Shown: positions 1,242 to 26,206 of the stretch, one piece after another
Numbering within the stretch: position 1 is the stretch's first letter
Layout of the letters: each line of letters begins with the position of its first letter
Assembly: GCA_003599755.1 (NCBI GenBank)
Contig: QZJO01000009.1
Span: 150,362-214,361, forward strand
Direction: 5' to 3'
Source of the DNA: Candidatus Parcubacteria bacterium
GTDB lineage: Bacteria; Patescibacteriota; Minisyncoccia; Sungbacterales; SURF-37
Length of the DNA: 64,000 nucleotides
Made by a program: the position numbers and the translations under genes
Notes under the pieces: generated by a model
Databases searched by the model: none
Seen by the model: only the letters and a program-made list of their open reading frames with translations
Told to the model about the DNA's origin: nothing

Positions 1242-1312
1242 AGGGACAGATGCGGTTTGGCGGGGCTAATGAACGCTATTTGAATTCAAAAATATAGGGA
1301 AGTCAATGCCGC

Positions 1313-4760: not shown

Positions 4761-4916
4761 ACCCGGTAGTAGAATTTCAAATATAATGACGTTTTCCCTT
4801 GCTATCCCTCTTGAATCTTTTCGAGATTACCTGGCATGCAAAATGGCCAGTCGGCCCAATTGAAATTTCACTACCGGGCATACATAAAACCTATACTGTT
4901 TACTACCAGAATGGAA

Positions 4917-4945
4917 CGGGGCGGGTTGCAGAGAACCCGCCCCGG
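4917..4945 (-). terminator. Candidate intrinsic terminator after GT-B gene (11-bp stem CGGGGCGGGTT/AACCCGCCCCG)
   Basis: Perfect inverted repeat 3 nt downstream of the stop at 4948, followed on the minus strand by UUCCAUUCU; lies in an AT-richer 187-nt gap that also has a TATATT element upstream of the NeuA-like start. Confidence 0.45.
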
Positions 4946-4947
4946 TG

Positions 4948-6150
4948 CTAACTACCTCCCCTTCTCTTCTCGACGGGAATCATCCCGACCGATGCATGAC
5001 CGGCACTATTGGCGATGATGGCGGCGGCGTACCGGTTTCCGTCCAACATCCCGAAGCGCCGCCGCAACTCTTCATTGCGGGCCCGAATGCCCGGCCGCAA
5101 TGCATCGCTGTCGGAGATCAGCTCTTGAAGGGACTCGCCGCGCCATACGATGCCAAGACCCAAGACCTCGATGCAGCGGTTGTTGTAGAGGATCTCCGGA
5201 TCATCAGCCGGGTCGAAGTCGGGCACCACGAGCGGCGTACCCGAGAGCTGCGACAACCACACCGACCCCCAGCCGGCCCGCGCGAATTGGAACAGGATCG
5301 CCGGATTCGGCACCACATGGGGCAGCATACGCTCGCCCCCGGGCACCGCGTCGGGATCGTTGGTATACAGATGCATGCCGAGCGCCTTGGCTTCCTGAAA
5401 GAGGCGCTCGAGCCCGGGAATCCCGGTTACGGTCACGAAGATACCGACATCGAGCGGGTCGTCGTTAGGCGCCGGCGGCGTGATCGTCGGCGGGATCGCG
5501 CGCTCCGTTCGATACCGGCGCATGCGGCCCTCCAGATACGAGAACGTGCCCGGCTCGGCGAGGCCAACGAACTTGGCCTTTTCTTCCAGAACGCGGAGCA
5601 TCGGGATCGCTTCGCGCACGAGATTGCGGTCGACCTTGACCATCTCGGATGATTCCCCGAGCACGTGCTCGAGAATCTCGGAGATATGAGCGAACGTGAC
5701 GTCGTAGCGCGGCGAGATGCCGAAGTCGACCCGCGGCGAACGAGCAAGCTGCAAGACGATGTCGCTTCCCGGCACGGCGTTCGATTCGCCGGACAGGTTC
5801 TGGACCGCGAGCTGGCCAGCAAGATACATCTGCGCATCCCGGCTCGCATCGGCGCCTTCGGTCACGAAGCTCTTGAGCGCGGTCTCGTAGTCGCTCTCAC
5901 CGTAGAACACCCGCTTCAGGATGGCGCCCAGCGTCGCATCCAGGAGGATCTCGCCCGGATGCTTTATGTCGTGCTGCGCGAATTCTTCGAGCATGACCCG
6001 CCTCTGGTCTTCGCCGTACACCCAGGGGACGATGATTCCGAGGCGCTCTTGGCGCCGGCCTTCCCGCGCGGCATTGAGCGCCAGCGCGAGTTCCACGGTT
6101 CGGAGGTACGGCCCCCGCCCGTAGGCGAAATTTACAACTGCGTAGCGCAT
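4948..6150 (-). CDS. GT-B fold glycosyltransferase/UDP-sugar hydrolase (MurG/PseG-like C-terminal signature)
   Basis: C-terminal ARAGWGSVWLSQLSGTPLVVPDF...DDPEILYNNRCIEVLGLGIV resembles the GT1/GT28 nucleotide-sugar binding motif; sits between NeuA-like and NeuB-like genes. Confidence 0.4.
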   Translation of the reverse strand: MRYAVVNFAYGRGPYLRTVELALALNAAREGRRQERLGIIVPWVYGEDQRRVMLEEFAQHDIKHPGEILLDATLGAILKRVFYGESDYETALKSFVTEGADASRDAQMYLAGQLAVQNLSGESNAVPGSDIVLQLARSPRVDFGISPRYDVTFAHISEILEHVLGESSEMVKVDRNLVREAIPMLRVLEEKAKFVGLAEPGTFSYLEGRMRRYRTERAIPPTITPPAPNDDPLDVGIFVTVTGIPGLERLFQEAKALGMHLYTNDPDAVPGGERMLPHVVPNPAILFQFARAGWGSVWLSQLSGTPLVVPDFDPADDPEILYNNRCIEVLGLGIVWRGESLQELISDSDALRPGIRARNEELRRRFGMLDGNRYAAAIIANSAGHASVGMIPVEKRRGGS

Positions 6151-6228
6151 GGCTGCTCCTTTCGACGCGTCAGTGAACTACCCGGATCAGCAATATCACA
6201 AATATACCGCCGACTCAAGCGCATCGAA

Positions 6229-7200
6229 TTATGCCGCGAGCGAGCGCTCGTCCCAATTTTGAACCCATTCTCCGCCTATATTACTGGCGAAGCGGCCGCG
6301 GTAATAGTCGCGGTTCAGCATCTCGGTATGCGTCATGTCGCGCGTCGCCGAACCGAGCATCACGCGCCAATCCGGAATTTCGCGTTCCAGCAGCGTCATG
6401 CGTTCCTCGCGCGACCGCTTGGCAAAATCCGCGAGCTCGCGCAATTGATCGGGATTGATGGATACCGGGCCATCCTTGGTAGCATCGGCCGGAAGAATCG
6501 TGAAATGCCGCTCGATATAATCGGCGCCCAGGGCCAACGCCGCCTTTGCCGCTTTGATCCCGTCGCGGGCGACGAGCGTATGGTCGGACCAGCCGACTTC
6601 GGGCGCGAATTGGCGGAGCCAATCCATGCGCGCCAAATTCGACATGGCAAGCGTATTCGGATAGCTCGTCACGCAATGGAGCATCGCATAGGGCTTGCCG
6701 GACGCCTTCAAGATTTCCGATGCCTTGGCGATCTCGTCATCGAGCGTCGCGCCGGTCGAGACGACCAAGCGGTCAAACGATCCGGTAAGATCCCGCAGCA
6801 TGGGAAAGCTCGCGCAGTCGTAGCTCGCGACCTTCACCAATTTCTCCTTCCACGGCAACGACGCCGCGAATGGGATGCGCTTCTTCGCGAACACGGTCAT
6901 CATCGGCGCCACGCCCGCCCGATGCGCTTCTTCGATGAAAAAATGATAGTCGTCTTCGGCCAAATCCAGCGACGCAAGCCGCGCCTTCTCCGGCTCGAAC
7001 GGACGCTGGATGGCTTTACGCACGCCGTTGGATTCCACGACGCCGGTTTCAAACCGCTCGCGGGGATGCAGATCTTCGGAAAAAATAATCTGGCCCTTCA
7101 CAATATCCGCGCCGGCCTCGGCCGCGCGCTGAATCATATCGCGAAGGACCCGGCGGTCCCCTTTGTGGTTCTGGCAAACCTCGGCGATTAGTTTGGCCAT
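6229..7200 (-). CDS. N-acetylneuraminate synthase family (NeuB/PseI/LegI-like), copy 1; no obvious C-terminal SAF domain
   Basis: N-terminal IAEVCQNHKGD (NeuB IAEIGxNHNGD motif), TIM-barrel-like length 323 aa. Confidence 0.75.
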   Translation of the reverse strand: MAKLIAEVCQNHKGDRRVLRDMIQRAAEAGADIVKGQIIFSEDLHPRERFETGVVESNGVRKAIQRPFEPEKARLASLDLAEDDYHFFIEEAHRAGVAPMMTVFAKKRIPFAASLPWKEKLVKVASYDCASFPMLRDLTGSFDRLVVSTGATLDDEIAKASEILKASGKPYAMLHCVTSYPNTLAMSNLARMDWLRQFAPEVGWSDHTLVARDGIKAAKAALALGADYIERHFTILPADATKDGPVSINPDQLRELADFAKRSREERMTLLEREIPDWRVMLGSATRDMTHTEMLNRDYYRGRFASNIGGEWVQNWDERSLAA

Positions 7201-7270
7201 GGAGGCTGAGAGTAGATACGCTTATATGACCCCAACGTAGCACACTTCGTTTCCGCGGAAATCATGCTAA

Positions 7271-7300
7271 AGAGAGAAGCCGCAGCGCACTGGCTGCGGC
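7271..7300 (-). terminator. Candidate intrinsic terminator downstream of small ORF 7323-7643
   Basis: Hairpin GCCGCAGC-gcactg-GCTGCGGC (7279-7300) followed on the minus strand by CUUCUCUCUUU. Confidence 0.4.
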
Positions 7301-7322
7301 TCCGCCGTGATGCAGAAAACGC

Positions 7323-7643
7323 CTACTCGTAGGCCCGCTTTGCTCCCTCGGACAGGCGTTGGAAGAACTCGTCGCCCTCGGTCGGGTTCGGGCCCAGATC
7401 CGGGCGCCTGCTCGGGTTCGAGGCATGTTTCGTTCCGTCTCGCCGAAACGCCTCGATGCCTCCCACGTTCTGAAGGGCGTCGAGCTGCTCCTCGGGAAGA
7501 TCGCCGCTCACGATGCCATAGCGCTCGAGGCGTTGCTGATTGATAGCCGTCATGCCGAGCGCCGCGAGGCGGTTGAGAACTTCCTGCTTTGTCGCCGGAT
7601 TAGCCGCGACATTTTTCTTGAGCACGATATGCACATTCATCCC
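7323..7643 (-). CDS. Hypothetical small protein (~106 aa from MNVHIVLKKN...)
   Basis: ORF in frame with a longer 146-aa reading; start chosen at internal ATG 7641-7643; no recognisable motif. Confidence 0.35.
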   Translation of the reverse strand, partial: GMNVHIVLKKNVAANPATKQEVLNRLAALGMTAINQQRLERYGIVSGDLPEEQLDALQNVGGIEAFRRDGTKHASNPSRRPDLGPNPTEGDEFFQRLSEGAKRAYE

Positions 7644-7713
7644 CAACCTCCAGCGGTTCGTATTTGAGCGGTACCACGATCCCGACTCGATTGACAATCG
7701 GATTGACCGGCAA

Positions 7714-8484
7714 TCACGCGACGGGCTTCCGACCGTCGACGGCCCAGCTGTTGCCATTAACATGAACTACCGAAACATGTTCCAAACCCGCCTGGCGCAA
7801 AAGTTCTTCGGCTTCGGATCGGCGATAATAGCGCGCGATCGCCGGCAGGAGCTGATCAAACGCGATGCTGTGCAAATGCGAAAAGCGGAAATTCCGAATT
7901 TGACGCAGGTACGGATGCTTCACCGGCCAGACGCGGAGGAATACGTACAGCGGCGCCGAGCAACCGTACGTCAGGACGTGCAATAGCGGCGGCGGCAGAT
8001 GGCTCGTGATGGCTCGACGCACCGGCGAGACGAACCGCTCGATCCATTCATTCCCCTCATATCCATAGACCCAGATATGCACCCGGCCGCCGGGCCTGAC
8101 CGCATCGGCGAGTTTCCGCACCGCCGCGGCCGGATCGGCAAGATGATGGATCACGCCGATCGAGAACGCGAGATCGAACTCGTTCGTCCATGGCGCGTCG
8201 TAAACGCTCAGGGTCTGGACGCGGACATTCGGATACGAGGCCAGGTTTGCTTGGGCCGCGGCAACGGAACGCCCGTCCGCATCGAACGCTACAACTTCGG
8301 CCGCACCCCACCGAAGCGCCCATACGCTGTTGCGGCCCATGCCGCAGCCGGCGTCCAATACGCGCTTGCCCGCGATATCGGCCGGCCCGAGCGGCGCCAT
8401 CCAACGCCGAAACTGCTCCTCGTATTCCGGGAGTACCGCTGCATAGGTCTGCCACTCGAAGGCGAAACGGTCGGCGGAAGCCAT
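7714..8484 (-). CDS. Class I SAM-dependent methyltransferase
   Basis: Motif I VLDAGCGMGRNS and downstream acidic-loop / PGGRVHIW pattern. Confidence 0.75.
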   Translation of the reverse strand: MASADRFAFEWQTYAAVLPEYEEQFRRWMAPLGPADIAGKRVLDAGCGMGRNSVWALRWGAAEVVAFDADGRSVAAAQANLASYPNVRVQTLSVYDAPWTNEFDLAFSIGVIHHLADPAAAVRKLADAVRPGGRVHIWVYGYEGNEWIERFVSPVRRAITSHLPPPLLHVLTYGCSAPLYVFLRVWPVKHPYLRQIRNFRFSHLHSIAFDQLLPAIARYYRRSEAEELLRQAGLEHVSVVHVNGNSWAVDGRKPVA

Positions 8485-8487
8485 GGA

Positions 8488-9066
8488 TCAGGCGCGTGAT
8501 GGTTTTTCAAAAATGAATTCGATCTCGTCGAACCCGCCGACCCAATAACACCAGAGGCGGCTGGCAAGCGCCGGCGCGGCATTCGCGAATGCCGAAACCA
8601 CGGCATTGACGGCGCGCGCGGCCGCGATGCGGACCGCGCCGTACCCCATGTGCGGTAAGAGATGGAAATGGGCAATGTAGCTCAGGCGCATGCGCCGCAG
8701 GAGAAATTCGGTGCCGGTATACCCGGACTTCGTGAACGCAGCATTGAAATATAACGGAAACGTCACGTCGAATCCGTGCGCGTGCTCGGCATGCGTAAAT
8801 CCACGGCTAAAGTGCGGCACTTTGACATGCAGCACGCCGCCGGGCCGGAGAATACGATTGAGCTCGGCCATCACCGCAAACGGCCGATCCAGATGCTCGA
8901 GAACGTGGAATGCCTCGATCCGGTCGAACGACCGGTCCGGAAACGGATACGGCAGGACGTTCAGATCGTGCACCACGTCGGGATGCACGCCGGCCTGCCA
9001 ATCCACGTTGACGTAGCCGTCTTTGCGGTCTTCGCCGCAGCCGAGGTTGAGTTGTTTCAGTTCCAT
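8488..9066 (-). CDS. Class I SAM-dependent methyltransferase (Methyltransf_11-like)
   Basis: LNLGCGEDRKDGYVNVD motif I and ILRPGGVLHVKVP motif. Confidence 0.7.
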   Translation of the reverse strand: MELKQLNLGCGEDRKDGYVNVDWQAGVHPDVVHDLNVLPYPFPDRSFDRIEAFHVLEHLDRPFAVMAELNRILRPGGVLHVKVPHFSRGFTHAEHAHGFDVTFPLYFNAAFTKSGYTGTEFLLRRMRLSYIAHFHLLPHMGYGAVRIAAARAVNAVVSAFANAAPALASRLWCYWVGGFDEIEFIFEKPSRA

Positions 9067-11018
9067 GATAGCCGCCAGACGCGCCAGGCATCCGGTGATT
9101 CCGCATCACTATAGACCGGCTCGGCACCGAGCCGCAACAGGCAATCCGGATCGCTCCGCATGGGCTCGACGCCCGGCCGCGCGACTACGTAGGCGATGCC
9201 GAGGCGGCGCAGACCATTGGGATCGCATGCGGACTGAAATGCCTCGTATGCGGCCAGCTCTTCCGCGTAGCCCCAGCCGACGATGAACGGGCCGGGCGCG
9301 AAGCGTCCAGTCTCGCGGATGAATTCCTCGCTGAACGGATAGAACCGGTCGGTATGCGCCGAGTTGCCCCGTACCCACGCATAAAGACGCGCCGCTTCGG
9401 GTACCGGCGCGTCGGGTATGCCGAGAAACGGCCGGGAAAAATCGCCGACGAATCCGAGCGGCGTCAACGTATAGATAACGAGAAACGCCAGCGCGGTTCC
9501 GCCCATGGCGAACGCCGCGACGCCGACCGCGGCCGTCCGCCAGGAAAACCGCCGCCACGCGCCGGATCGCTCAACGATTTCGGCGAGCAACATGCCGGCA
9601 AGAAACGAAAAGAGTTGGGTCGAAAACGCGAAGAACCGTTCCATTTCCCGCGGGCGGGTTTCGTAGCGAACCGCCAGCGGTACAAGAAACGCGATGGCCG
9701 GGATCATAGCTATGAACAGGGCCCTCGGATTACCGCGGAAGCGCCATGCCGCGAACGGAAACAGCGCGAGCGGCAGGCCGAACTCAAGAAAGAATGACGG
9801 ACGAAACGGCAACACGCCCTTGTCCGTAATTTCGGTATTCCAAAAATCCTCCACGAATGCGAATGCTTGCGGTTCCTCGGATTGTCCGAGCGTGGAGAGA
9901 ATCCCGCCCTGCCAAAACGCCATCGCGGTACCCACACCGAGTATGATTGCCGTGACGGCAATCGCGCGCCCCGGCGTCCCGGGTATCGCGCGCGCGAACC
10001 GAGTAGGCCAGATGCGGCCGAGCGGCCCGGCGGCGATCCCCGCGGCGACAAATGCCGCAAACAGTACGGCAACATGCGTCTCGAGCGCGAGCGCAGCGTA
10101 GCCGTACGCGATGCCTGCCACAAGCGCGAACGCGAACCAGCGCGTACCGGTCGCGAGCGCGCGCAGATAGGCGTAGAGAGCCACGAGCAGTACTGGCAAT
10201 CCGAGCGCCGTGGTGTGATTGGATGCCATCACGAAGCTCGAATCGAACCGCGGCGTTGTCATGGCCGCCAAAAACGCCCATGGCGCATCGCGCGCCTCGC
10301 CGAGTATGAATGTCTGCCAAAGGCCGACTATGCCGGGGACCACCGCGAGCCAAGCGAGTCCTCCGCCGATGCCGAAAAATACCGCGCCCCATACCGCCGC
10401 GTGCGTACCGAAGCCGAGCTCGCGCGCGAGCGCAAACGCCATGAGCAATCCGGCAAAAACGAAGAGGAACGTCTGCAGATCGTAACCGATCCACAGCGGC
10501 GTACCGGCTACGCGGGAAAATATCGCAGAGAGCATTTCGGGCGCGTAGTGGTACGCGACCGGATGATCGGGCGCGGACGGATCCGACACCGGCAGATTGC
10601 CTTCAGCGATCGTAGCTGCGAGCGGCAGATGGCCGAGCTTCACGTCTGAATCCTGCAACGTGCGGAGCGCGACAATACCGGCCAGCGCCGCGATGCCAAG
10701 CGCGATGCCGAACAGCACGAAGGCCTCGTGCCGCGAAATATCGCCGCGCTCAAGCGATGCCGCCTGCCGCGCGGCAAGCCATTGCCAGCCGAACGCGGCT
10801 GAAAGCGCCATGAGGCCGAGTATGAGCCAAACCGCGGCGTCGAACGGGAGGAAAAATCCCGCAGCGTTGACCGCCGCGCCGAGCGTTCCGAACCCGGCAA
10901 TGATCGCTATCGGCGCAACGGCCCAGACGCGCCGCTCGCCCAATATACCCACGGCAACAAGGCCGCCGAACGCGGCCGCGACCCCGAGCAGTCCGATAAA
11001 GAAAATAATGCTGAGCAT
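9057..11018 (-). CDS. Polytopic integral membrane protein with ~200-aa C-terminal soluble domain (possible glycan polymerase/GT-C-like; family unclear)
   Basis: At least 12 hydrophobic segments then a non-hydrophobic tail; architecture resembles the 40413-42131 protein. Confidence 0.45.
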   Translation of the reverse strand: MLSIIFFIGLLGVAAAFGGLVAVGILGERRVWAVAPIAIIAGFGTLGAAVNAAGFFLPFDAAVWLILGLMALSAAFGWQWLAARQAASLERGDISRHEAFVLFGIALGIAALAGIVALRTLQDSDVKLGHLPLAATIAEGNLPVSDPSAPDHPVAYHYAPEMLSAIFSRVAGTPLWIGYDLQTFLFVFAGLLMAFALARELGFGTHAAVWGAVFFGIGGGLAWLAVVPGIVGLWQTFILGEARDAPWAFLAAMTTPRFDSSFVMASNHTTALGLPVLLVALYAYLRALATGTRWFAFALVAGIAYGYAALALETHVAVLFAAFVAAGIAAGPLGRIWPTRFARAIPGTPGRAIAVTAIILGVGTAMAFWQGGILSTLGQSEEPQAFAFVEDFWNTEITDKGVLPFRPSFFLEFGLPLALFPFAAWRFRGNPRALFIAMIPAIAFLVPLAVRYETRPREMERFFAFSTQLFSFLAGMLLAEIVERSGAWRRFSWRTAAVGVAAFAMGGTALAFLVIYTLTPLGFVGDFSRPFLGIPDAPVPEAARLYAWVRGNSAHTDRFYPFSEEFIRETGRFAPGPFIVGWGYAEELAAYEAFQSACDPNGLRRLGIAYVVARPGVEPMRSDPDCLLRLGAEPVYSDAESPDAWRVWRLSWN

Positions 11019-11024
11019 ACGCTG

Positions 11025-12905
11025 CTATCGCCCCCTCCCGAGCCACCGCCGATGCCATAGCAAGAACACCATCAACGTCCAAAGCTGCTTGCGGTTGTCC
11101 CGCCGGCGGGCGCGATGGTCATCGAGCAGCCGCTGGACTTCAGCCGCGTCGAACAGGCCGACGGACGCAACCGAGCGAGGCGACAAAAGATCCGTCGCAA
11201 ATTCTCGAAGTTCGCCGTTCAGCCAGCGCGTCAACGGGATGCCGAAACCCTTTTTCGGCCGATCCGCGATGCCTGCCGGCAGTCGGGACCGCATGAGCGC
11301 CTTCAAAATGTATTTGGTCGTAAGGCCCCGGCATTTCCAATGGTACGGCAGCCGGTGCGCAAACTCCACGACGCGGTAATCGAGAAACGGCGCGCGCACT
11401 TCAAGGGCTGAACGCATGCTCGCGCGATCCACTTTCACGAGCACGCCATCCATCAGATACGCGCGCAGATATTCATACAGCACTCGCTGCATCGGGTCGG
11501 CATGCGCAAGCTCGGCGCGCCAGCGGTCCACGTCGTCGAATTCGTTTTCGGCCGCGAGCGCGCGCCACGCATCCGGCCGGAACAGGCGCGCGCGCTCGTC
11601 GCGATCGAACGCGGCAAGCCACCGCGCGTGACGATAGCGTTCCGGTCCGCGAAGCCCGCGCAGAAATCGCGTCGCCTTGAATCCGAAGCTGAAATTGGTG
11701 TCGCGCACCGGCAGGCGCGACACCCAGGACTCGGCTAATCCGCGCACCGCAGCGGGCAGCCGGCGTACGAACGCCGCGAGTCGTTCCGCGGGGAACGTCG
11801 GATAGCCGGCGAAAAGTTCGTCGCTGCCGTCGCCGCCGAGCGCGACGGTCACGCGGCGGCGGGCAAACTTCGCGAGCAAAGCGCTGGGCAACAGCGACGC
11901 GTCGGCCAACGGCTCATCGGCAAGATCGGCAATTTCCGGCACAAGCTTCAGTACGTCGCCGGCAACGAACGCCGTCTCATGGTGCGTGGTTCCGAGATAT
12001 TCGGCTACGCGCCGCGCATACGGCGCCTCGTCAAAACTCTCCTCGTGGAAGGAGATCGAAAACGTCTCGACCGGCGTACGACTCGCCTGGACCGCGTAGT
12101 AGGCCACGGTCGAGCTGTCCAGGCCTCCGGAGAGCAGCACGCCGACCGGCACGTCGGCCGCGAGGCGCGGAGTCACGCTTGCCGCGAGCAAACGATCGAG
12201 CTCGACCGTCGCATGCGCGAGGCCGATCGGCTCGGCCGGCGCATCCGGAAGGCGCCAATACGCGCCGGTGCGCTTCACGCCGTCCTTCCAGACCAGATAT
12301 GATGCCGGCGACAACTTTTGGATATGCTTGAAGATCGTCCGCGGGGCGGGAACGTATTCGTATGCGAGATACTTGTTGAGCGCGACCAGATCCAATTCGC
12401 GCGTCACCGCCGGATGCGCTACGAGCGCTTTCAATTCGGAACCGAATACCAGCGTATTGCCGAACGCGCCCCAGAAAAGCGGCTTTTTGCCGAAGCGATC
12501 GCGCGCGAGCGTAAGTTCGCCGGTCTTGGTGTCGAAGAGCGCGAGTGCGAACATGCCATTCAGCCGGGCGAATGCGCCGGTGCCGAATTCGTCCCAGAGC
12601 GCCAGAATGACCTCGGTGTCTGATTCCGAACGGAATGTTCGCCCGCGCGCGGCAAGTTCGGCGCGCAGTTCCCGGAAATTATAGATTTCGCCGTTAAACG
12701 TGATCCAAACCGTCCGGTCGGCGTTCGGCATGGGTTGGTGTCCGGCCGGGCTCAGGTCGAAAATCGCGAGGCGCGCGTGCGCAAGCCCCGCGCCCTCTCC
12801 CGTCCAAATACCGCCGCCGTCCGGTCCGCGGTACCGAATGGCGCCGATCATTTGTTCCAGATCATCCCGCCCGCCCGCACCGACGAATCCCGCGATGCCG
12901 CACAT
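11025..12905 (-). CDS. Asparagine synthetase (glutamine-hydrolysing) family amidotransferase, AsnB/WbpS/PseA-like
   Basis: Start at MCGIAGF (N-terminal nucleophile Cys2), RGPDGGG, SGGLDSS PP-loop motif; the upstream in-frame 56-codon extension is judged non-coding. Confidence 0.8.
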   Translation of the reverse strand: MCGIAGFVGAGGRDDLEQMIGAIRYRGPDGGGIWTGEGAGLAHARLAIFDLSPAGHQPMPNADRTVWITFNGEIYNFRELRAELAARGRTFRSESDTEVILALWDEFGTGAFARLNGMFALALFDTKTGELTLARDRFGKKPLFWGAFGNTLVFGSELKALVAHPAVTRELDLVALNKYLAYEYVPAPRTIFKHIQKLSPASYLVWKDGVKRTGAYWRLPDAPAEPIGLAHATVELDRLLAASVTPRLAADVPVGVLLSGGLDSSTVAYYAVQASRTPVETFSISFHEESFDEAPYARRVAEYLGTTHHETAFVAGDVLKLVPEIADLADEPLADASLLPSALLAKFARRRVTVALGGDGSDELFAGYPTFPAERLAAFVRRLPAAVRGLAESWVSRLPVRDTNFSFGFKATRFLRGLRGPERYRHARWLAAFDRDERARLFRPDAWRALAAENEFDDVDRWRAELAHADPMQRVLYEYLRAYLMDGVLVKVDRASMRSALEVRAPFLDYRVVEFAHRLPYHWKCRGLTTKYILKALMRSRLPAGIADRPKKGFGIPLTRWLNGELREFATDLLSPRSVASVGLFDAAEVQRLLDDHRARRRDNRKQLWTLMVFLLWHRRWLGRGR

Positions 12906-12909
12906 GGCA

Positions 12910-13875
12910 TTAGGGCGCGCTTCGCTCGTGCACGCTCTCGACGACATAAAACGGCTTCTGAGTCGCGGCGTATTGCGTGCGGATGAGCATCTCGGCGAAC
13001 AATCCCATAAGAATGAACTGCACGCCGATGATGGCGAACAGGACCGCGACCGCCGGCAGCGGCGTGGCCACAAACGATTTTCCCTCGCCGTACTTCAGCC
13101 AGACCATAACGGCGAAGGTCAAAGCGCTTGCCGCCAAACTCCAGAAGCCAAACCAGCCGAAGAAATGCATCGGCCGCGAACGGAATCTCCGAAAAAAATA
13201 ATGCGCGAACACGTCGAGTACGACCTTGAAGGTCCGGGAAAAGCCGTATTTGGACGTACCGAACTGCCGCGGCGAAAATCGAATCGGCACCTCGGCGATG
13301 CGCCCGCCGGCATGCACGGCCATCATGCGGTGCATGTCGCCAATGAACGCGAGCGATACGATCCGATCGCGGCGGTAGACCTTCAGCGGACAGCCGTGAT
13401 CATGCAGCCGAACGCCGCTGACCCATGAAATAAGCGTATTGGCGAGCATCGAGGGAATGCGCCGCGTGAACAGATGATCCCGCCAGCGATCGCGGCGCCA
13501 GCCCGATACCACGTCGTATCCTTCGGCAAACTTTTCCAGAAGCGATGGAATATCATCCGGATCGTTCTCCAGATCGCCGTCAAGCGTCACGATAATGCGA
13601 CCGCGCGAAGCATGGATGCCGGCCGCGAGCGCGGCGGTCTGGCCATAGTTCTCGCGCAAGCGAATGAAATGGAGCGGCGCGCATCGTTCGGCCGCGGCGG
13701 CCGTTCCATCGGTCGAGCCGTCGTCGACGAAAATAAGCTCCCAGGTCATCGGCATGCGCCCGAGCGCTTTGCACAGGCGCGCATGCAGCCGCGGCAGCGA
13801 TTCTTCTTCATTGAAAAACGGTACCACGACCGAAAGGTCGAGTCGCGCGATTGCATTGGCATCGGAATTCGGCAT
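12910..13875 (-). CDS. Glycosyltransferase family 2, Dpm1/ArnC/GtrB-like polyprenyl-phosphate glycosyltransferase with two C-terminal TM helices
   Basis: LSVVVPFFNEE, FVDDGSTDGT, VTLDGDLENDP motifs; hydrophobic C-terminus. Confidence 0.8.
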   Translation of the reverse strand: MPNSDANAIARLDLSVVVPFFNEEESLPRLHARLCKALGRMPMTWELIFVDDGSTDGTAAAAERCAPLHFIRLRENYGQTAALAAGIHASRGRIIVTLDGDLENDPDDIPSLLEKFAEGYDVVSGWRRDRWRDHLFTRRIPSMLANTLISWVSGVRLHDHGCPLKVYRRDRIVSLAFIGDMHRMMAVHAGGRIAEVPIRFSPRQFGTSKYGFSRTFKVVLDVFAHYFFRRFRSRPMHFFGWFGFWSLAASALTFAVMVWLKYGEGKSFVATPLPAVAVLFAIIGVQFILMGLFAEMLIRTQYAATQKPFYVVESVHERSAP

Positions 13876-13880: not shown

Positions 13881-14942
13881 TTAGTGCACGTGGGACTCCA
13901 GAATTTGCTCGTCGGCTTCGATCATGACGCGGGCGGTCTTTCCGACGATTCGGTCGGCCATCGCCGGCGCCAATCCGCCTTTGCCCGGCCGTTTGAACGC
14001 GATCATATCCCGCGTAATAGCCATACCCGCCGCGATATCCCTGCGCGCCACGATAGCCTGGCTCGCCCAGTTGCGGCCGGTCTCGAGTCGCCGCAGCCGC
14101 TCTGCATCCGGCACCGGCCGCAAAGCCGCTTCCACATCGCGGATCTGGCGCACCATGAGCTTGAACTCCGCGGGCAAAAGCGCCCCCGGGTTATCGAGCG
14201 AACGCGGATCGTCCTTATCAAAGGTAAGGTGTTTTTCGACGACGCATGCGCCGAGCGCCACGGCAGCAAGGACAACCTGCCAGCCCACCGAATGATCCGA
14301 GATGCCGACCGGCAGGCCCGTCAATTCGCCGATGCGCCGCATCCGCGTAAGGTCGATTGCATCGTACGGCGTGGGATACAGCGTCGTACAATGCAGCGCG
14401 ATCATCGGCCCCGCGCCCGCCTGGCTGAGTGTGTCGATCGCGCGCACGACCTCGTCATCCGACTGTAAGCCGAACGATATCATGATGGGCTTTTTCGCCG
14501 CGCCGACCCGCTTGAGAAAATCTATGTTGCCCGCCTCCCCGGACCCGATCTTCAGAAACGGCGGATCGAATTCGCGGAGCAAAAGATCCAAACTCTCTTC
14601 CTCATGCGCCGTTGCGAAAAACGGGTAGCCCGCCGTGCGCGCGTAACGCGCGAGATCGGCGAGCGCCTCGAGTGATAGTTCCTTGTATTTCACGCGTTCG
14701 AACCAATCGAAGCCAAGCTCCGGCGCAAGGCGCTTGGCGACTTTCCTGCTGATTAATGCCTCGGTGTTCGTCACCTGAAACTTCACGATATCCGCACGCG
14801 CGGCCGCTGCGGCATCTACCTGGCGTTTGGCGAGTTCCAGATCTCCATAATTGGTAACGCCGCCTTCGCAAATAACGAAAACGGGTTGGCCGGGGCTGAT
14901 AATCCGACTGCCGGCGCGAAATGGCGGCTGGGATTGATTCAT
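13881..14942 (-). CDS. N-acetylneuraminate synthase family (NeuB/LegI/PseI-like) with C-terminal SAF domain, copy 2
   Basis: VFVICEGGVTNYGD motif, SAF-like C-terminus (IVARRDIAAGMAI...); start chosen at the ATG giving ATGA overlap with the upstream gene (alternative ATG at 14963). Confidence 0.8.
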   Translation of the reverse strand: MNQSQPPFRAGSRIISPGQPVFVICEGGVTNYGDLELAKRQVDAAAAARADIVKFQVTNTEALISRKVAKRLAPELGFDWFERVKYKELSLEALADLARYARTAGYPFFATAHEEESLDLLLREFDPPFLKIGSGEAGNIDFLKRVGAAKKPIMISFGLQSDDEVVRAIDTLSQAGAGPMIALHCTTLYPTPYDAIDLTRMRRIGELTGLPVGISDHSVGWQVVLAAVALGACVVEKHLTFDKDDPRSLDNPGALLPAEFKLMVRQIRDVEAALRPVPDAERLRRLETGRNWASQAIVARRDIAAGMAITRDMIAFKRPGKGGLAPAMADRIVGKTARVMIEADEQILESHVH

Positions 14943-15901
14943 AGCGGATGTCGGCGGCACCATTGCACGGTAAGCTCGGCGATATGAAGCATCGATTTTT
15001 CCGTGGCTTCTCTCGTAGCGCCGCCCAGATGCGGGACGATAATCATATTCTCATGAGTCCGGGCATAGTCAACCAGCGGATGCGTTTTGACGTGCGCGCC
15101 ATCGGGCGTCTCGCCGGCCAGCGTATCCACTGCCGCACCGGCAATGCGCTTGGCCTTGAGTGCAGCCAAGAGCGCGGATTCGTCCGCGATCTCGCCCCGC
15201 GCGGTATTGATGAACACTGCCGTCGGTTTCATCAGGCGGAAATGCCGGGCACCGAGCATACCGGCAGTTCTATCGCTGTACACGCAATGCACCGAAACGA
15301 CATCGGCGGCGCGCAACAGCGCGTTAAGCCCAGCGCGGCGCGCGCCGCCGCGAGCCATTGCGCTTGCCGAAACATACGGATCATAGGCGATCACGCGCAT
15401 GCCGAACGCGCGCGCATAGCGCGCGACATACGAACCGAGCCGCCCGAAGCCGATGACGCCGAAGGTCTTGCCGGCGAGCTCATGGCCACCGTACCGGCGC
15501 CGTTCCCAGCGCCCCGCCTCCAGCGAGCGCATGGCCCAGGGAATATTGCGCACGAGCGCGAGTACGAGCGCGAACGTCTCTTCGGCCGTGGACGGAATTT
15601 GGCGCAATACCGGGGAGTCGCCTTTGATATGCACGACAGCGATCCCCCGCCGCGCGGTTTCAGCGCGGTCGATGTGCCGCAGCTGTGTGGTGCGCGAGGC
15701 GACAAGCTCGAGGCGCGGCGCGCGATCCAGCACGGCTTTGGTGAAATTCACCTCCAGCCCTGCGACCACGACATGCGCGCGCGGCAAATTTTTAAAAAAC
15801 ACCGAGCGGCTGCCGAACGGAATAACGCGGCCGACGCGCGCCAGCATACGCATTGCCTGCGGGCTGAATTCCCGTTCTGCGATAAGGATAACGCGCTTCA
15901 T
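14939..15901 (-). CDS. D-isomer-specific 2-hydroxyacid dehydrogenase (NAD-binding; glycerate/phosphoglycerate dehydrogenase-like)
   Basis: GVIGFGRLGSYVARYARAFGMRV Rossmann motif; FINTARGEIADESAL; catalytic H in VPHLGG. Confidence 0.75.
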   Translation of the reverse strand: MKRVILIAEREFSPQAMRMLARVGRVIPFGSRSVFFKNLPRAHVVVAGLEVNFTKAVLDRAPRLELVASRTTQLRHIDRAETARRGIAVVHIKGDSPVLRQIPSTAEETFALVLALVRNIPWAMRSLEAGRWERRRYGGHELAGKTFGVIGFGRLGSYVARYARAFGMRVIAYDPYVSASAMARGGARRAGLNALLRAADVVSVHCVYSDRTAGMLGARHFRLMKPTAVFINTARGEIADESALLAALKAKRIAGAAVDTLAGETPDGAHVKTHPLVDYARTHENMIIVPHLGGATREATEKSMLHIAELTVQWCRRHPL

Positions 15902-16629
15902 ACGAGCCCTGCCCGAATTATGCATTCGGCGAGCGCCAAGTCGTTCGGCGTATTAATATCGAACGCGCCGAGCTCATCGATACCGAGACCGACGCGCCGA
16001 CCGACTTCAAGGCCGTGTTCTCGGAAAAATGCGTCGCGCCTGAACCAGTAGCAGTTGCCGAACGCATAGCGCCTGGGGTCCGATTGGCGCGTCGGATGGG
16101 CATAATGCATTTCGGGCTGATCGAATTCCAAAAATCCCTTATCAGTCATGCGGCGCACATGATAGGGATGGAAAATGCGCGGCACCTCGATACAGGTAAT
16201 GCCCGAATCGGCGCCCTTGGTCGTTACGAGTTCGAATAGCCGATCGATATGGTCCGACCGGATGAACGGTTCCGTGGGCTGAGCGAGCAACACGTATTCG
16301 GGTGCGTAGTGCTCATGCTCTTCAAGCCACCGGAGCGCATGATCCACGACGGGAATCATCGGCGTAGAATCCTCGGCCAATGCGGCAGGACGCACATACG
16401 GCGTCTCGGCGCCGTATTGGCGCGCAATCGCGGCGATCTCCTCGTTATCGGTATCGACGATCACCCGCCGTACTGAGTGCGCATGGTGTATTGCCGCCAA
16501 AACATACGCAAGCAACGGTTTACCGGCGAGGGGATGAATATTCTTTTTCGGAATCATTTTCGATCCCCCGCGTGCGGGAATGATCGCCAACGTTTCCTGC
16601 GGCTCGTCTCTGGTCACAGTCATGGTCAT
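15898..16629 (-). CDS. Acylneuraminate cytidylyltransferase family (CMP-nonulosonate synthetase), copy 2
   Basis: IIPARGGSKMIPKKNI motif; 243 aa. Confidence 0.8.
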   Translation of the reverse strand: MTMTVTRDEPQETLAIIPARGGSKMIPKKNIHPLAGKPLLAYVLAAIHHAHSVRRVIVDTDNEEIAAIARQYGAETPYVRPAALAEDSTPMIPVVDHALRWLEEHEHYAPEYVLLAQPTEPFIRSDHIDRLFELVTTKGADSGITCIEVPRIFHPYHVRRMTDKGFLEFDQPEMHYAHPTRQSDPRRYAFGNCYWFRRDAFFREHGLEVGRRVGLGIDELGAFDINTPNDLALAECIIRAGLV

Positions 16630-16695: not shown

Positions 16696-17883
16696 CTATA
16701 GCGATCGCGTCTGGCGCCACTGCACCGTCGGCATGATCGCCTCGCGGTTGATGGCTTCCTTGGCTTCGCTCACCCGCCGCAGGAGCGACTGCACCAGTTC
16801 ATCCGACAACGCGGTCGGCGTGAGCCCGAGACGCAGGAGGTGGTCGTTGCGCGGGTTGTAGTAGTGGTCTTCTGCTTCGACCCGCGGGTTCTCGATCCGG
16901 CGGATCGTCGCATCCCATCCGAGTATGCGAGCCGCGTCGCAGACGGCCTTGGCAAGCTCGAATACGGAAAAGACCTCGGTGAACTGATTGAACACCCGGA
17001 ATTCGCCTGCCGCGGGAGGGTTCATGGAGGCGAGCTCAACGCACTGAATGGTGTCGCGGATGTTGAGGAACCCGCGCTTCTGATTCCCTCCTCCGTACAC
17101 GGTGATCGGATGGCCGGTCGCCGCCTGCACGACGAAGCGGTTCAGCGCCGTTCCGAACACGTGATCGTAGTGGAAACTCGTCACGAGCCGCTCGTTCATG
17201 TCCGTCTCGGGAGTAGAGATGCCGTAGACGACTCCCTGGTTCAGATCGGTCGCCCGCAACTTCCAGATCCGGCAGGCGAAGGAAATGTTCCCCGAGTCGT
17301 GAACTTTGGACCAGTGGTACCAGGATCCTGCCTGCTTCGGAAACGGAAGGGTGTCCTTCCGCCCCCGATGTTCGATCTCGATGAAGCCCTCCTCGATGTC
17401 GATGTTCGGGGTTCCGTACTCACCCATGGTCCCGAGCTTCACGAGGTGCGCGTGCGGCACCACCTCCTGCATGGCGTACAGCACATTCAGGGTTCCGATG
17501 ACGTTGTTCCGCTGCGTGAACGTCGCGCGGCGATGATCGATCATCGAGTACGGCGCCGACGGCTGTTCGGCGTAGTGGATGATCGTCTCGGGCCGGAACT
17601 CCTGAAAGACGTCCTTCAGAAACTCGAAATCGCCCGCGATGTCGCCCAGAGAGCTTCGGATCCGGAGACCCGAGCACTCGCGCCAGGCGGCGAGTCGCTG
17701 CCGCAACGATGGAATCGGGAACAGCGGCATGGCGCCGACTTCCTCCTCCCACCGCCGCTTGGCCATGTTGTCTACGATCGCGACGTCATGCCCCTTGGCC
17801 GAGAAGTGCAGCGCCGTGGGCCAGCCAAGATACCCATCGCCGCCAAGAACCAGGATCCGGAGTGGGCGGAAGTCGATCCGCAT
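16696..17883 (-). CDS. UDP-sulfoquinovose synthase (SQD1/SqdB)-like extended SDR
   Basis: Diagnostic N-terminus RILVLGGDGYLGWPTALHFSAKGHDVAIVDNMAKRRWEEEVG matches the SQD1 signature (GGDGYCGWATAL...IVDNLVRR); strong SD AAGGAGG 4 nt before the ATG. Confidence 0.7.
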   Translation of the reverse strand: MRIDFRPLRILVLGGDGYLGWPTALHFSAKGHDVAIVDNMAKRRWEEEVGAMPLFPIPSLRQRLAAWRECSGLRIRSSLGDIAGDFEFLKDVFQEFRPETIIHYAEQPSAPYSMIDHRRATFTQRNNVIGTLNVLYAMQEVVPHAHLVKLGTMGEYGTPNIDIEEGFIEIEHRGRKDTLPFPKQAGSWYHWSKVHDSGNISFACRIWKLRATDLNQGVVYGISTPETDMNERLVTSFHYDHVFGTALNRFVVQAATGHPITVYGGGNQKRGFLNIRDTIQCVELASMNPPAAGEFRVFNQFTEVFSVFELAKAVCDAARILGWDATIRRIENPRVEAEDHYYNPRNDHLLRLGLTPTALSDELVQSLLRRVSEAKEAINREAIMPTVQWRQTRSL

Positions 17884-18003: not shown

Positions 18004-19170
18004 CTAGCGCCCGATGACGAGGCGCTTGCGAAAGAGCGTTTCGTTGAGCTCGAGCGCTTTGACGATCTCGAGCACCCTGTTGCTCGCGCGCCCGTCACCG
18101 TAGCGCCGGCCGCAGGAGGCGAGCGCGGCGCGGAAACCCGGATCGCGACCGACGAACTCGATCGCCTCGCGAATAGCCGGTACCGCCAGAGGAACGTCGC
18201 GAACATTCGCTTCCCGATCGCGTCCTTGCTGGCGCGCACCGATGTTCAAAGCGGGGAGACGGAAATACGGCGCCTCTACGAACGCTGCCGACGAATTCCC
18301 GAGCATCACCTCGGCGCCGGCCATCAGACCGAGAAAATCGAAATTCTCGATGTTCGGAAACAGCCGGAACCGCGGATGCCCTCGCCGCTGCTCCAGAACC
18401 TCGATGATTTCGTCATAGCCGGGATCCGAACACGGGTATACGGCGATCCACGTGTGGCCGCTCGCGATCGCCGCCGCACACACCCGTTCCGCGACTTCGC
18501 GGTTCTCCGATGCTCCGAGGAACGTATCGGGATGCAGGATGAGGATACCGTAGCGCTCGCCCGGGCCGATGCCGTAGCGCCCGGCCGCTTCGCCGGGCGG
18601 CGTATACATCTGGCGCAAGATACGATCGATGTAGAGCGAACCGACGGCGTGCACCCGCCATGATTCTTCACCGAGCGCCCGAATGCGGGAGGCCGCTTCT
18701 TCGGTCTCCGCGAAATGCACATGGGCGAGCTTCGTGATCGCGTGGCGCTGGATGTCGTCGATGTTGCCCGACACCTCGCCGCCCTGGGTATGCGTCACCG
18801 CAATACCGAGGGTTACTGCGGCAAGCGCCACGATGAGATGCTCCGCGCGATCGGCATGCACCATGACGATATCGGGCCGCTCGCGTTCGAGCAGGCGCGC
18901 GGCCTCGCTCATGCAGCGGCCGAGGTTTTCTGCCCGCACAAGCGCACTGCCTCCGCGTCCGGCCCCCATCTCGATGCGATGTATGGCGCGCGCGGGAAAA
19001 AGATTTTCTGCCTCCCGTACCGTCGCCCCGAACTCGGCGGCCAGATGCATGTCGCCGAGCAGGATCATGAGCTCGAGATCAGGATCGGCTTCGATCGCAC
19101 GCATGAGCGGTACATACGCGCCGAAGCCGCCGCGCTTTCCCGAAAAGGCGCAAATTTTTTTTGGCTTCAC
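18004..19170 (-). CDS. UDP-N-acetylglucosamine 2-epimerase family (NeuC/LegG/WecB-like)
   Basis: Epimerase_2-like layout, HTQGGEVSG motif; GTG start at 19168-19170 preceded by SD AGGGAGG. Confidence 0.7.
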   Translation of the reverse strand: MKPKKICAFSGKRGGFGAYVPLMRAIEADPDLELMILLGDMHLAAEFGATVREAENLFPARAIHRIEMGAGRGGSALVRAENLGRCMSEAARLLERERPDIVMVHADRAEHLIVALAAVTLGIAVTHTQGGEVSGNIDDIQRHAITKLAHVHFAETEEAASRIRALGEESWRVHAVGSLYIDRILRQMYTPPGEAAGRYGIGPGERYGILILHPDTFLGASENREVAERVCAAAIASGHTWIAVYPCSDPGYDEIIEVLEQRRGHPRFRLFPNIENFDFLGLMAGAEVMLGNSSAAFVEAPYFRLPALNIGARQQGRDREANVRDVPLAVPAIREAIEFVGRDPGFRAALASCGRRYGDGRASNRVLEIVKALELNETLFRKRLVIGR

Positions 19171-20285: not shown

Positions 20286-20397
20286 AACTTCGAAGTTAAC
20301 GAGTAAATCCCCTAACCGTGAAAACCGCTATGCGCATGCGACAACCACGCGGCGGCGGATCGGTGTGAAAAATTTTGAAGTAGCGCCGCCGGACATA

Positions 20398-24683: not shown

Positions 24684-24781
24684 GGGAAACGAGCGGAATG
24701 CGGATCCGCTCATTTATAATACGGCTTCCCTGCCTGCCCTGTTTCCTCCCCGTGCCTGTCGCGCTCGGAACTCTTTGTACG

Positions 24782-26129: not shown

Positions 26130-26157
26130 TTGACAATTTACAGAAAAGATATACAGT
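26130..26157 (+). promoter_or_regulatory. Sigma-70-like promoter for the IMPase-family gene
   Basis: TTGACA (26130-26135), 16-nt spacer, TACAGT; AT-rich patch; GAGGTGA SD before GTG 26207. Confidence 0.4.
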
Positions 26158-26206
26158 TTTTACAGCCAAACTGCCCTTCGACAACTTCAACCAGCGAGGT
26201 GAAAGT

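Follow-up and report, generated by a model that had tools for sequence, protein, structure and literature searches.

An asparagine synthase-like gene in a Parcubacteria glycan locus and its conserved ArnC-type glycosyltransferase partner

A family 2 glycosyltransferase (GT2) together with a membrane glycosyltransferase of the GT-C fold is the signature of the Arn, Gtr, and Pgf types of systems, which load a sugar onto polyprenyl phosphate, flip it, and then transfer it on the outer side of the membrane. Modification of polyprenyl-phosphate sugars before transfer is an established pattern in such systems (ArnC, ArnD, and ArnT). A different line of work concerns amidotransferases of the asparagine synthase (AsnB) family. 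There is genetic evidence that three of them, WbpS, WbqG, and PGN_1234, form uronamides (PMC7468200; PMC6025236): glucuronamide was lost when PGN_1234 was knocked out in Porphyromonas gingivalis (PMC7468200), and a wbpS mutant of Helicobacter pullorum incorporated HexNAcA in place of HexNAcAN (PMC6025236). O-antigen clusters have already been found to encode AsnB-like amidotransferases, and a gene of this kind would be ordinary on its own. Here we describe an AsnB homolog from a 64,000-nucleotide stretch of a Candidatus Parcubacteria genome (contig QZJO01000009.1, positions 150,362 to 214,361; we refer to this whole stretch as the window), where it lies between an ArnC-type GT2 and a GT-C-like membrane protein.

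What is new is that one subgroup of AsnB proteins is tightly linked to one subfamily of ArnC-type GT2s across phyla and that it has GT-C and methyltransferase partners in the Patescibacteria. We found no description of this pairing in a targeted full-text search of the literature, whose coverage was incomplete. The AsnB homolog is probably a cytoplasmic carboxylate amidotransferase that resembles WbpS (or the eps_aminotran_1 family) and is dedicated to a surface glycan rather than to asparagine synthesis. On balance, we think it likely that it uses glutamine and ATP to amidate the carboxyl group of a sugar within a polyprenyl-phosphate decoration pathway similar to Arn or Gtr, with the substrate suggested by context.

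Linkage of the two genes across phyla

We scanned one genome per species in GTDB, which yielded AsnB homologs of 40-50% identity in 80 loci. These loci span at least nine phyla, including Acidobacteriota, Desulfobacterota, Chloroflexota, Verrucomicrobiota, Myxococcota, and Bacteroidota, as well as Firmicutes (Heliobacteria), Actinomycetes, Planctomycetota, Patescibacteria, and others. For 68 of them, there was enough upstream sequence to look for the GT2, whose orthologs we defined as scoring at least 300 bits on a profile of AsnB-linked GT2s. On this profile, ArnC from E. coli scores 245 bits and the second GT2 of the window scores 78 bits. In 44 of the 68 loci, the strand of AsnB carries a GT2 ortholog at most 500 bp upstream of it, and 6 other loci have one within 5 kb. 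Among the 44 is a metagenome-assembled genome from the Patescibacteria (L013) in which the GT2 ends 6 bp before AsnB begins.

Nine loci were fetched by way of AsnB homologs that are 50-59% identical, mostly from named Patescibacteria (L002, its short duplicate L003, L004, L005, L006, L095, L096, L097, and the P0047 locus). In these loci, a GT2 of 312-331 amino acids adjoins AsnB or is one gene away; in L006, the gene in between is GtrA. Two loci that were fetched by way of GT-C homologs (L092 and L093) also contain both genes, four to six genes apart, and in another (L091) AsnB was not found within the sequence available. According to BLAST, the GT2s of the related loci are 36-61% identical, and the GT-C proteins of the window's type in L002 and L004 about 40%. 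Gene order varies (GT-C-GT2-AsnB, GT2-AsnB-GT-C, GT2-GT-C-AsnB, or GT2-GtrA-AsnB-membrane protein) and the surroundings are wholly different. Because the adjacency holds across phyla and with shuffled gene order, we argue that the linkage of GT2 and AsnB reflects neither chance nor a housekeeping function.

The other partners are less widespread. GT-C orthologs adjoin AsnB in L002, L004, L092, and L093, but we did not find the window's type of GT-C beside AsnB outside of Patescibacteria-like loci. A GT-C of the PMT_2 type directly flanks AsnB in five loci of other phyla, and some large polytopic protein lies within 6 kb of AsnB in 17 of 47 loci. Given these distributions, the GT-C seems to be a lineage-specific partner and not part of a universal core. 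In most of the related loci, AsnB is followed by a methyltransferase of about 190 amino acids and one of about 256 amino acids. The window's 192-amino-acid methyltransferase, which belongs to the cassette in Patescibacteria, has a 70% identical ortholog in L002, and methyltransferases of 187-197 amino acids directly follow AsnB in L095, L097, L093, and the P0047 locus. The larger methyltransferase, MT256, has orthologs in L002 (66% identity) and L005, and its family is found in 26 loci and also near GT2-AsnB outside of the Patescibacteria. A family similar to epimerases of the short-chain dehydrogenase/reductase (SDR) type recurs in 22 of the scanned loci.

Several loci have additional genes. 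In the P0047 locus (JGI sample 3300072015), the GT2, AsnB, and methyltransferases of 187 and 254 amino acids lie in that order amid a type IV pilus cluster with a PilC-like T2SSF protein, six genes of the prepilin-type N_methyl family, and a prepilin peptidase, so pilins may be what is glycosylated there. In L092 (positions 100-8785), the order is GT2, an SDR similar to 4,6-dehydratases, DegT, formyltransferase, AsnB, GT-C, and methyltransferase. B12-binding radical S-adenosylmethionine (SAM) enzymes are encoded inside or beside the cassette in L093 (4371-5795; 198 bits on HpnJ) and twice in L097 (8305-9720 and 1-1282; both recognized from Pfam alone), a hint that the same sugar might also be C-methylated or altered in its ring. 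Finally, in L015 (6838-8022) and 12 other loci of the Pyrinomonadaceae type, a conserved protein of 394 amino acids is always encoded immediately downstream of AsnB. Its sole Pfam match is a sub-threshold match to Pec_lyase. Further downstream, these loci contain genes similar to WbpB, WbpD, and WbpE, a DUF354 protein, and an initiating sugar-phosphate transferase.

The amidotransferase and its partner enzymes

A mechanical list of open reading frames (ORFs) has the AsnB homolog at 11025-13073 (minus strand). Translation from the ATG at 12905 yields a protein of 626 amino acids that begins with MCGIAGF, and the homologs likewise begin with MCG in alignments, so we consider 11025-12905 to be the correct extent of the gene. 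Its start is 4 nucleotides past the stop codon of the GT2 (TAA, 12910-12912). An identical protein is encoded on a 263,839-bp metagenome contig of the JGI. An earlier note on this DNA had described a full-length protein of the asparagine synthetase family with Cys2 as the nucleophile and SGGLDSS as the PP-loop, and the translation, Pfam, and alignments all confirm this. The Asn_synthase domain (PF00733) matches residues 235-619 along the entire profile (positions 1-354 of 354; 329 bits, E = 5.9e-98), and GATase_6/7 match residues 28-162 (E of about 1e-45). In the alignment, the residues of the glutamine site in AsnB from E. coli (PDB 1CT9) and in the human enzyme (R49, N74-G75-E76, and D98; roles described in PMC6748925) correspond to R45, N71-G72-E73, and D96. 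These residues and S259, G260, G261, D263, S264, and S265 are invariant among 20 aligned homologs. The adenylating domain also contains a GGDGSDE motif (residues 357-363), in which an invariant Asp replaces E348 of the E. coli enzyme. With a Met-Cys start that supplies the nucleophile, the glutamine-site residues, an SGGxDS PP-loop, and a full Asn_synthase domain, the protein is by its sequence a member of the AsnB family, and it is a full-length, intact, and apparently active class II glutamine amidotransferase.

To place the protein within the family, we compared its NCBIfam scores to those of four references: AsnB from E. coli, a true member of TIGR03108 that is adjacent to XrtA (in L088, where xrtA adjoins the gene), the asnB at the WbpS position of an O6-type cluster from Pseudomonas aeruginosa, and the asnB of an exopolysaccharide locus from Sphingomonas taxi. 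We take the O6-type protein to be WbpS because of its place in the cluster (wzz, tviB/wbpO, tviC/wbpP, flippase, GT4, asnB) and the layout of such clusters. The window's protein scores 558.7 bits on TIGR03108 (cutoff 816.9), 468.9 on TIGR01536 (cutoff 267), 386 on TIGR03104 (cutoff 570), and 277.7 on NF006949 (cutoff 499). On the same four models, WbpS scores 553, 458, 357, and 275 bits, which is nearly the same profile, while AsnB from E. coli scores 245, 510, 220, and 1050 bits. The XrtA-adjacent protein scores 868 bits on TIGR03108 and 462 on TIGR01536. The window's protein is 39% identical to WbpS, 39% identical to the XrtA enzyme, and 31% identical to AsnB from E. coli. By these measures, it is nearer to WbpS-type proteins than to housekeeping AsnB. 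Also, its match to NF006949, the equivalog model for AsnB from E. coli, falls into two stretches, of which the better one covers residues 1-371 only; it is not an E. coli-type AsnB. Both WbpS and the XrtA enzyme also exceed the cutoff of TIGR01536, the generic model from which public pipelines take the name "asparagine synthase", so that name says nothing about function.

We also compared the protein to solved structures. By sequence, the closest are the hydroxyamidotransferase TsnB9 (7YLZ, 218 bits) and then AsnB from E. coli (1CT9, 158 bits), and about 100 residues (371-485) have no aligned counterpart in the latter. Of the residues that bind aspartate in the E. coli enzyme (E348, D351, E352, D384, and R387), E348 is replaced by D359, D362 and E363 are kept, and the region of D384 and R387 aligns ambiguously (D486...K491). 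The acidic motif is not diagnostic for specificity towards aspartate, as the family at large keeps it and so does TsnB9, which acts on something other than an amino acid.

We considered three other named families and rejected them. For the XrtA/PEP-CTERM amidotransferases (TIGR03108), the score is below the cutoff and there are no exosortase or PEP-CTERM genes among the annotated ORFs of the window. The scores for lasso-peptide cyclases (201 bits, cutoff 525) and for the NAGGN amidotransferase (TIGR03104) are also too low, and the partner genes of both are missing.

The earlier note had proposed a phylogeny, and we built a neighbor-joining tree from 87 sequences and 628 columns, rooted on AsnB from E. 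coli. The window's protein falls in a clade of 71 members, and the GT2 is present for 51 of the 61 members that could be assessed. WbpS, the XrtA enzyme, and the S. taxi protein fall outside this clade, among sequences that mostly lack the GT2, but the split was recovered in just 84 of 200 bootstraps. So we do not claim a robust separate clade. Instead, we regard all of these proteins as members of a single broad group of WbpS-like enzymes, in which linkage to the GT2 is the commonest context.

The gene is part of a tight run on the minus strand (NeuB-like, GT2, AsnB, GT-C, and the two methyltransferases), with spacings of 3-6 nucleotides or an overlap of 10 nucleotides. The neighbors are as the earlier note had them, that is, a 321-amino-acid GT2 upstream and a 653-amino-acid polytopic membrane protein downstream; what the note missed is that they are conserved functional partners. 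It had also called the GT2 Dpm1-like. There is a match to the archaeal dolichol-phosphate-mannose synthase 5mlz (58 bits), but the matches to GtrB (5ekp, 103 bits) and especially to the ArnC structures (9bhc and 8vxh; 163 bits, full length, residues 13-315) are stronger, and we describe it as ArnC/GtrB-type. It is 34% identical to ArnC from E. coli over residues 14-315, and it has two predicted transmembrane helices at its C terminus. We predict that it is a polyprenyl-phosphate monosaccharide synthase.

The 653-amino-acid membrane protein has no match in Pfam or NCBIfam and no similarity to ArnT according to BLAST. When we compared an AlphaFold2 (AF2) model of it (predicted local distance difference test, pLDDT, of 63; predicted template modeling score, pTM, of 0.70) to the PDB with Foldseek, the top 11 matches and the 13th were all GT-C proteins (AglB, STT3, DPY19, AftA, AftD, and Pmt4), with probability 1.00 and template modeling scores of 0.37-0.47. 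We predict from this model that the protein is an extracytoplasmic glycosyltransferase that depends on a polyprenyl-phosphate sugar. Its family is small: a word-based search gave few homologs, and an exhaustive HMMER scan of 1.84 billion proteins found 553 representatives.

As for the methyltransferases, the PDB search with MT256 gave generic matches to class I methyltransferases only. The methyltransferase orthologs from Patescibacteria carry a hydrophobic insert (KD19 of 1.3-1.9), which is a weak hint of chemistry near the membrane. We rejected the idea that MT256 is a CmoB-like carboxymethyl transferase that supplies the carboxyl group: equivalents of K91 and R315 of CmoB are absent, and Y200 is replaced by His in all six orthologs.

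Proposed function and the alternatives

We propose the following mechanism, in which the enzyme takes care of one step within a five-gene operon (GT2, AsnB, GT-C, and two methyltransferases). As expected from the chemistry of the family, the glutaminase domain with Cys2 would hydrolyze glutamine and free ammonia, the PP-loop domain would adenylate the carboxyl group of the substrate, and ammonia would replace AMP so that a primary amide forms. The GT2 would work on the cytoplasmic side of the membrane, where it transfers a monosaccharide from a nucleotide sugar to polyprenyl phosphate. Just before or after loading, the AsnB homolog would turn the carboxyl group of this sugar (most likely C6 of a hexuronic acid) into a carboxamide, and the two methyltransferases would methylate the sugar. 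After a flip, the GT-C would attach the neutral amidated sugar to an extracytoplasmic acceptor, which might be a wall polymer, an S-layer protein, or a pilin. From the context of the gene, the substrate would be the sugar that the GT2 puts on polyprenyl phosphate, most simply a hexuronic acid in parallel to WbpS, and we infer the order of the steps and the acceptor. There may be precedents for parts of this scheme. RgtE from Rhizobium reportedly makes polyprenyl-phosphate galacturonic acid as the donor for GT-C enzymes, and TfpW, a membrane glycosyltransferase/oligosaccharyltransferase, is said to glycosylate pilin in P. aeruginosa.

A bolder version of this idea is that the GT2 and AsnB, often with methyltransferases, form an undescribed pathway across many phyla in which the AsnB-type enzyme acts at the membrane on a sugar that is already linked to polyprenyl phosphate. 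This would be a new class of substrate for the family and a role similar to that of ArnD. The sugar would end up amidated, methylated, and without charge, and the GT-C would then join it to a wall polymer, an S-layer protein, or a type IV pilin. We consider this version tentative and less likely than not.

Several observations weigh against sugar amidation in a polyprenyl-phosphate pathway. The bootstrap support that separates the GT2-linked clade from the WbpS and XrtA references is low, as described above, and the protein passes the generic equivalog model for asparagine synthase. An anchored GT2 of the ArnC, GtrB, or DPMS (dolichol-phosphate-mannose synthase) type and a GT-C alongside it are both present, but confidence in the model of the GT-C is moderate, and we found no flippase gene of the GtrA or ArnE/F type in the window. 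(Just one small ORF in the vicinity, 7323-7640, lacked an assignment, and it encodes a soluble protein.) We also surveyed nucleotide-sugar dehydrogenases with a profile built from four of them and found no enrichment: one lies within 6-8 kb in 1 of 26 loci with an adjacent GT2 and in 1 of 12 loci without the GT2. So the uronic acid is suggested by homology only. The earlier note had tied the amidotransferase to the window's uronic acid dehydrogenase, but this link is weak, given this survey and the distance of 16.5 kb between the two genes. Finally, the genes between the GT2 and AsnB in L092 encode an SDR similar to 4,6-dehydratases, an aminotransferase (41% identical to ArnB from E. coli), and a formyltransferase (31% identical to the N-terminal domain of ArnA), and these predict a formamido sugar without an obvious carboxyl group. 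We rejected an Arn-like route as a general explanation, as profiles for the formyltransferase, DegT, and the deacetylase match 1, 7, and 1 of about 90 loci, which implies that the arrangement in L092 is specific to that locus.

The lack of dehydrogenases around most of the related loci also bears on an alternative that we consider unlikely, namely that the enzyme amidates some other acidic group of a glycan, such as the C1 carboxyl of an ulosonic or nonulosonic acid or a glyceric, lactic, or amino-acid substituent. In the window, genes for a NeuB-like protein with a SAF domain, a D-2-hydroxyacid dehydrogenase, and a CMP-transferase are immediately upstream in the same tight operon, and a NeuB-like gene and a CMP-transferase are near the cassette in L002 and L091, as is a CMP-transferase in L006. 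However, NeuB or CMP-transferase genes are present in just 2-3 of about 90 loci, whereas the GT2 is the constant partner. ArnC-type GT2s use UDP- or GDP-sugars and not CMP-sugars, and no C1 amide of an ulosonic acid is known to us.

It seems quite unlikely that the carboxylate is not on a sugar at all but in the envelope, for example in the stem peptide of peptidoglycan or at an Asp, a Glu, or the C terminus of the protein (perhaps a pilin) to which the GT-C attaches a sugar. Long paralogs of AsnB (of the LtsA or AsnB1 type) are reported to amidate meso-diaminopimelate in Gram-positive bacteria, and the lasso cyclases of the AsnB family act on side chains of peptides, but the score of the window's protein on the lasso model (201 bits) is under its cutoff. 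GT2-AsnB with two methyltransferases does occur within a type IV pilus cluster, but in one Patescibacteria-like locus only, and there are no mur, peptidoglycan, or pilin genes beside the AsnB homolog in the window. Also, the partner that is shared across phyla is a GT2 that loads sugars, which would not be needed to amidate peptidoglycan or protein.

We consider it very unlikely that this is simply the cell's housekeeping asparagine synthetase, which uses glutamine and happens to lie in a glycan locus. Besides TIGR01536 (469 bits, cutoff 267) and the public annotation of the homologs as "asparagine synthase (glutamine-hydrolyzing)", this idea draws on the cluster that binds the amino group of aspartate in human ASNS (E364, D367, and E368), which is kept as D359, D362, and E363, and long bacterial forms of AsnB can make asparagine. 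But the same acidic motif is kept in TsnB9, the protein fails the E. coli-type model (278 bits, cutoff 499), and residues 371-485 do not align to the E. coli enzyme. Nor do we see how a housekeeping role could explain why one subfamily of GT2 adjoins the gene in 44 of 68 loci, in at least nine phyla, and with shuffled gene order.

The earlier note had offered two chemistries, the amidation of sugar carboxylates and the formation of acetamidino groups as by PseA, of which the first is plausible given the WbpS-like scores and the second fares poorly. Although there is a formyltransferase in the window and another between the GT2 and AsnB in L092, and an amidine would give a cationic sugar that is functionally like 4-amino-4-deoxy-L-arabinose (Ara4N), we see hardly any chance that an acetamidino or formamidino sugar is formed from an N-acyl group, as no model for N-acetyl-sugar amidotransferases of the WbuX/PseA type is among the NCBIfam matches at E ≤ 0.001, no HisH/HisF-like genes (similar to imidazole-glycerol-phosphate synthase) were seen among the annotations of the window's ORFs, formyltransferases are found in 1 of about 90 related loci, and to our knowledge no enzyme of the AsnB family activates an amide carbonyl and every characterized one activates a carboxylate.

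If a sugar carboxyl is amidated within a polyprenyl-phosphate pathway, as we think, then this would be a new tailoring step in the decoration of surfaces by monosaccharides on polyprenyl phosphate, in which amidation removes a charge; it would be the counterpart of the addition of charge by Ara4N. It would also give a concrete surface-glycan pathway for the ultra-small Patescibacteria, whose envelopes mediate attachment to their hosts. And because TIGR01536 accepts enzymes of the WbpS and XrtA types, the annotation of "asparagine synthase" in a reduced genome would be no proof that the organism is prototrophic for asparagine. If the bolder version holds, then many of the "asparagine synthase" calls in the Patescibacteria would reflect surface decoration instead of amino acid biosynthesis.

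The surrounding locus and comparison to known systems

The AsnB homolog is embedded in a glycan locus, as the earlier note had said: a single minus-strand block of about 48 kb (306-48689). The nucleotide-sugar dehydrogenase and the nonulosonate modules that the note had listed are there as well (two NeuB-like proteins, two CMP-transferases, and a NeuC-type epimerase; Table 1). Because both NeuB-like proteins score well under the cutoffs for NeuB and PseI, the acids that are made may be unusual.

Table 1. Features of the amidotransferase gene and of the glycan locus around it (positions in the window)
Feature	Positions	Strand	Details
AsnB-family glutamine-dependent amidotransferase	11025-12905	minus	626 amino acids; translation, Pfam, NCBIfam, and PDB matches
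N-terminal nucleophile (Ntn) glutaminase domain, N-terminal	12306-12905	minus	about residues 1-200; GATase_6/7, alignment to E. coli AsnB, invariant columns
Cys2 codon	12900-12902	minus	
PP-loop SGGLDSS, ATP pyrophosphatase motif	12111-12131	minus	residues 259-265
Asn_synthase (adenylating) domain	11049-12203	minus	residues 235-619; Pfam, alignment, invariant columns
ArnC/GtrB-type GT2, conserved partner directly upstream of AsnB	12910-13875	minus	321 amino acids; Glycos_transf_2, 110 bits
GT-C-fold membrane protein (predicted), directly downstream of AsnB	9057-11018	minus	653 amino acids, about 12 transmembrane segments; AF2 and Foldseek
Class I SAM methyltransferase, small	8488-9066	minus	192 amino acids; Methyltransf_11; overlaps the GT-C gene by 10 nucleotides
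Class I SAM methyltransferase, MT256	7714-8484	minus	256 amino acids; Pfam
Ulosonic module 1: NeuB-like gene (NeuB+SAF), in the tight run	13881-14963	minus	
Ulosonic module 1: D-2-hydroxyacid dehydrogenase	14939-15925	minus	
Ulosonic module 1: CMP-transferase	15898-16629	minus	
Ulosonic module 2: NeuB-like gene without SAF	6229-7200	minus	
Ulosonic module 2: protein without Pfam match	4948-6150	minus	400 amino acids
Ulosonic module 2: CMP-transferase	4029-4760	minus	
NeuC-type epimerase	18004-19170	minus	TIGR03568, 303 bits (cutoff 236)
Formyltransferase	20398-21270	minus	36% identical to the N-terminal domain of ArnA over 116 amino acids
DegT aminotransferase	27174-28379	minus	32% identical to ArnB
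SDR	28389-29432	minus	
Nucleotide-sugar 6-dehydrogenase	29433-30728	minus	TIGR03026, 237 bits (cutoff 190)

The dehydrogenase, the SDR, and DegT are a possible source of precursors for the cassette. The same trio is found in L002 (where the SDR is 63% identical) and is not conserved in the other related loci. More broadly, Arn-like parts are scattered over 19245-21270 and 27174-30728 on the minus strand: a dehydrogenase, an SDR, DegT, a formyltransferase, and a polysaccharide deacetylase of the fold family of ArnD. Together with the ArnC-type GT2 and the GT-C, these would complete a route similar to that of Ara4N, if they are in fact linked to the cassette.

Other genes of the block hint at further sugars and other ways to attach them. 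At 16696-17883 (minus strand), an SDR matches UDP-sulfoquinovose synthase (NF041015) along its full length with 479 bits (cutoff 575), a hint that the glycan of this Parcubacteria bacterium contains a sugar that is sulfonated or has a related modification at position 6. An 822-amino-acid protein (35181-37649, minus strand) with about nine transmembrane segments is a fusion of an N-terminal GT2 (94 bits) and a GT-C of the PMT_2 type; it would be a second system for polyprenyl-phosphate sugars, and it is a natural fusion of the types of enzymes that flank AsnB. A third GT-C (48945-50681, plus strand; PMT_2, 95 bits, and PMT, 36 bits) is just beyond the end of the glycan locus. Three proteins of about 450 amino acids with weak matches to TagB/TagF (Glyphos_transf; 1313-2671, 2668-4032, and 23307-24713, all on the minus strand) are candidates for transferases that use CDP- or CMP-activated donors. 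A protein of 572 amino acids with about 10 transmembrane segments and no Pfam match (40413-42131, minus strand) is a candidate polymerase, ligase, or further GT-C, and a soluble protein of 276 amino acids (26138-26968, minus strand) has no Pfam match either. The AT skew of the plus strand reaches 0.18-0.25 in 8001-12000 and 34001-42000, probably because of the T-rich codons for hydrophobic residues in polytopic membrane proteins that are encoded on the minus strand. The glycan locus is flanked by two large minus-strand genes: a 603-amino-acid protein with LTD and PKD domains (46878-48689) and a 1245-amino-acid protein in which PG_binding_1 is the sole recognized domain (53588-57325).

How does this compare to described enzymes? 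PseA, WbuX, and WbpG are also ATP-dependent amidotransferases with a PP-loop that are encoded in glycan loci, but they belong to a different family. An Ntn glutaminase domain is not known from them, and HisH/HisF-like proteins serve as their partners. AsnB from E. coli and human ASNS share with the window's protein the fold family, the glutamine-site residues, the PP-loop, and an acidic motif of the SGxGxDE type. TsnB9 is, like the window's protein, a long-form homolog of AsnB, and it acts on a carboxylate that is not an amino acid, but it is an enzyme of secondary metabolism that makes a hydroxamate and has no glycan context. Among the named families, the XrtA/PEP-CTERM amidotransferases (TIGR03108, eps_aminotran_1) score best, and the window's protein is 39% identical to a true member yet below the cutoff.

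The closest described enzymes are those of the WbpS class (WbpS from P. aeruginosa O6, WbqG from E. coli O121, PGN_1234, and WbpS from H. pullorum). They make uronamides out of HexNAc-uronic acids. They have the same two-domain build (626 versus 627 amino acids), and they too are encoded in surface-glycan loci. The identity to the WbpS of the O6-type cluster is 39%, and for that protein, as for the window's, TIGR03108 is the top match and falls below its cutoff. The difference is in the neighbors. WbpS adjoins the dehydrogenase and epimerase WbpO/WbpP and the GT4 enzymes of a Wzx/Wzy O-antigen cluster. In contrast, the window's gene lies between an ArnC-type GT2 and a GT-C. Methyltransferases come next, and a nearby dehydrogenase is not a conserved feature.

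In gene arrangement, the best comparison is to the Arn (ArnC, ArnD, ArnT), Gtr, Pgf, and CsbB-YfhO systems. The tailoring enzyme in the window is of the AsnB type and not a deformylase or deacetylase, the GT-C is from a small family that Pfam does not cover, and we saw no gene for a flippase in the window. Nevertheless, the plan is similar: those systems likewise combine a GT2 of the ArnC/GtrB type and a GT-C with a cytoplasmic tailoring enzyme in between. The likeness extends to the related loci, as L006 carries GtrA and L092 carries genes similar to ArnB and to the N-terminal domain of ArnA.

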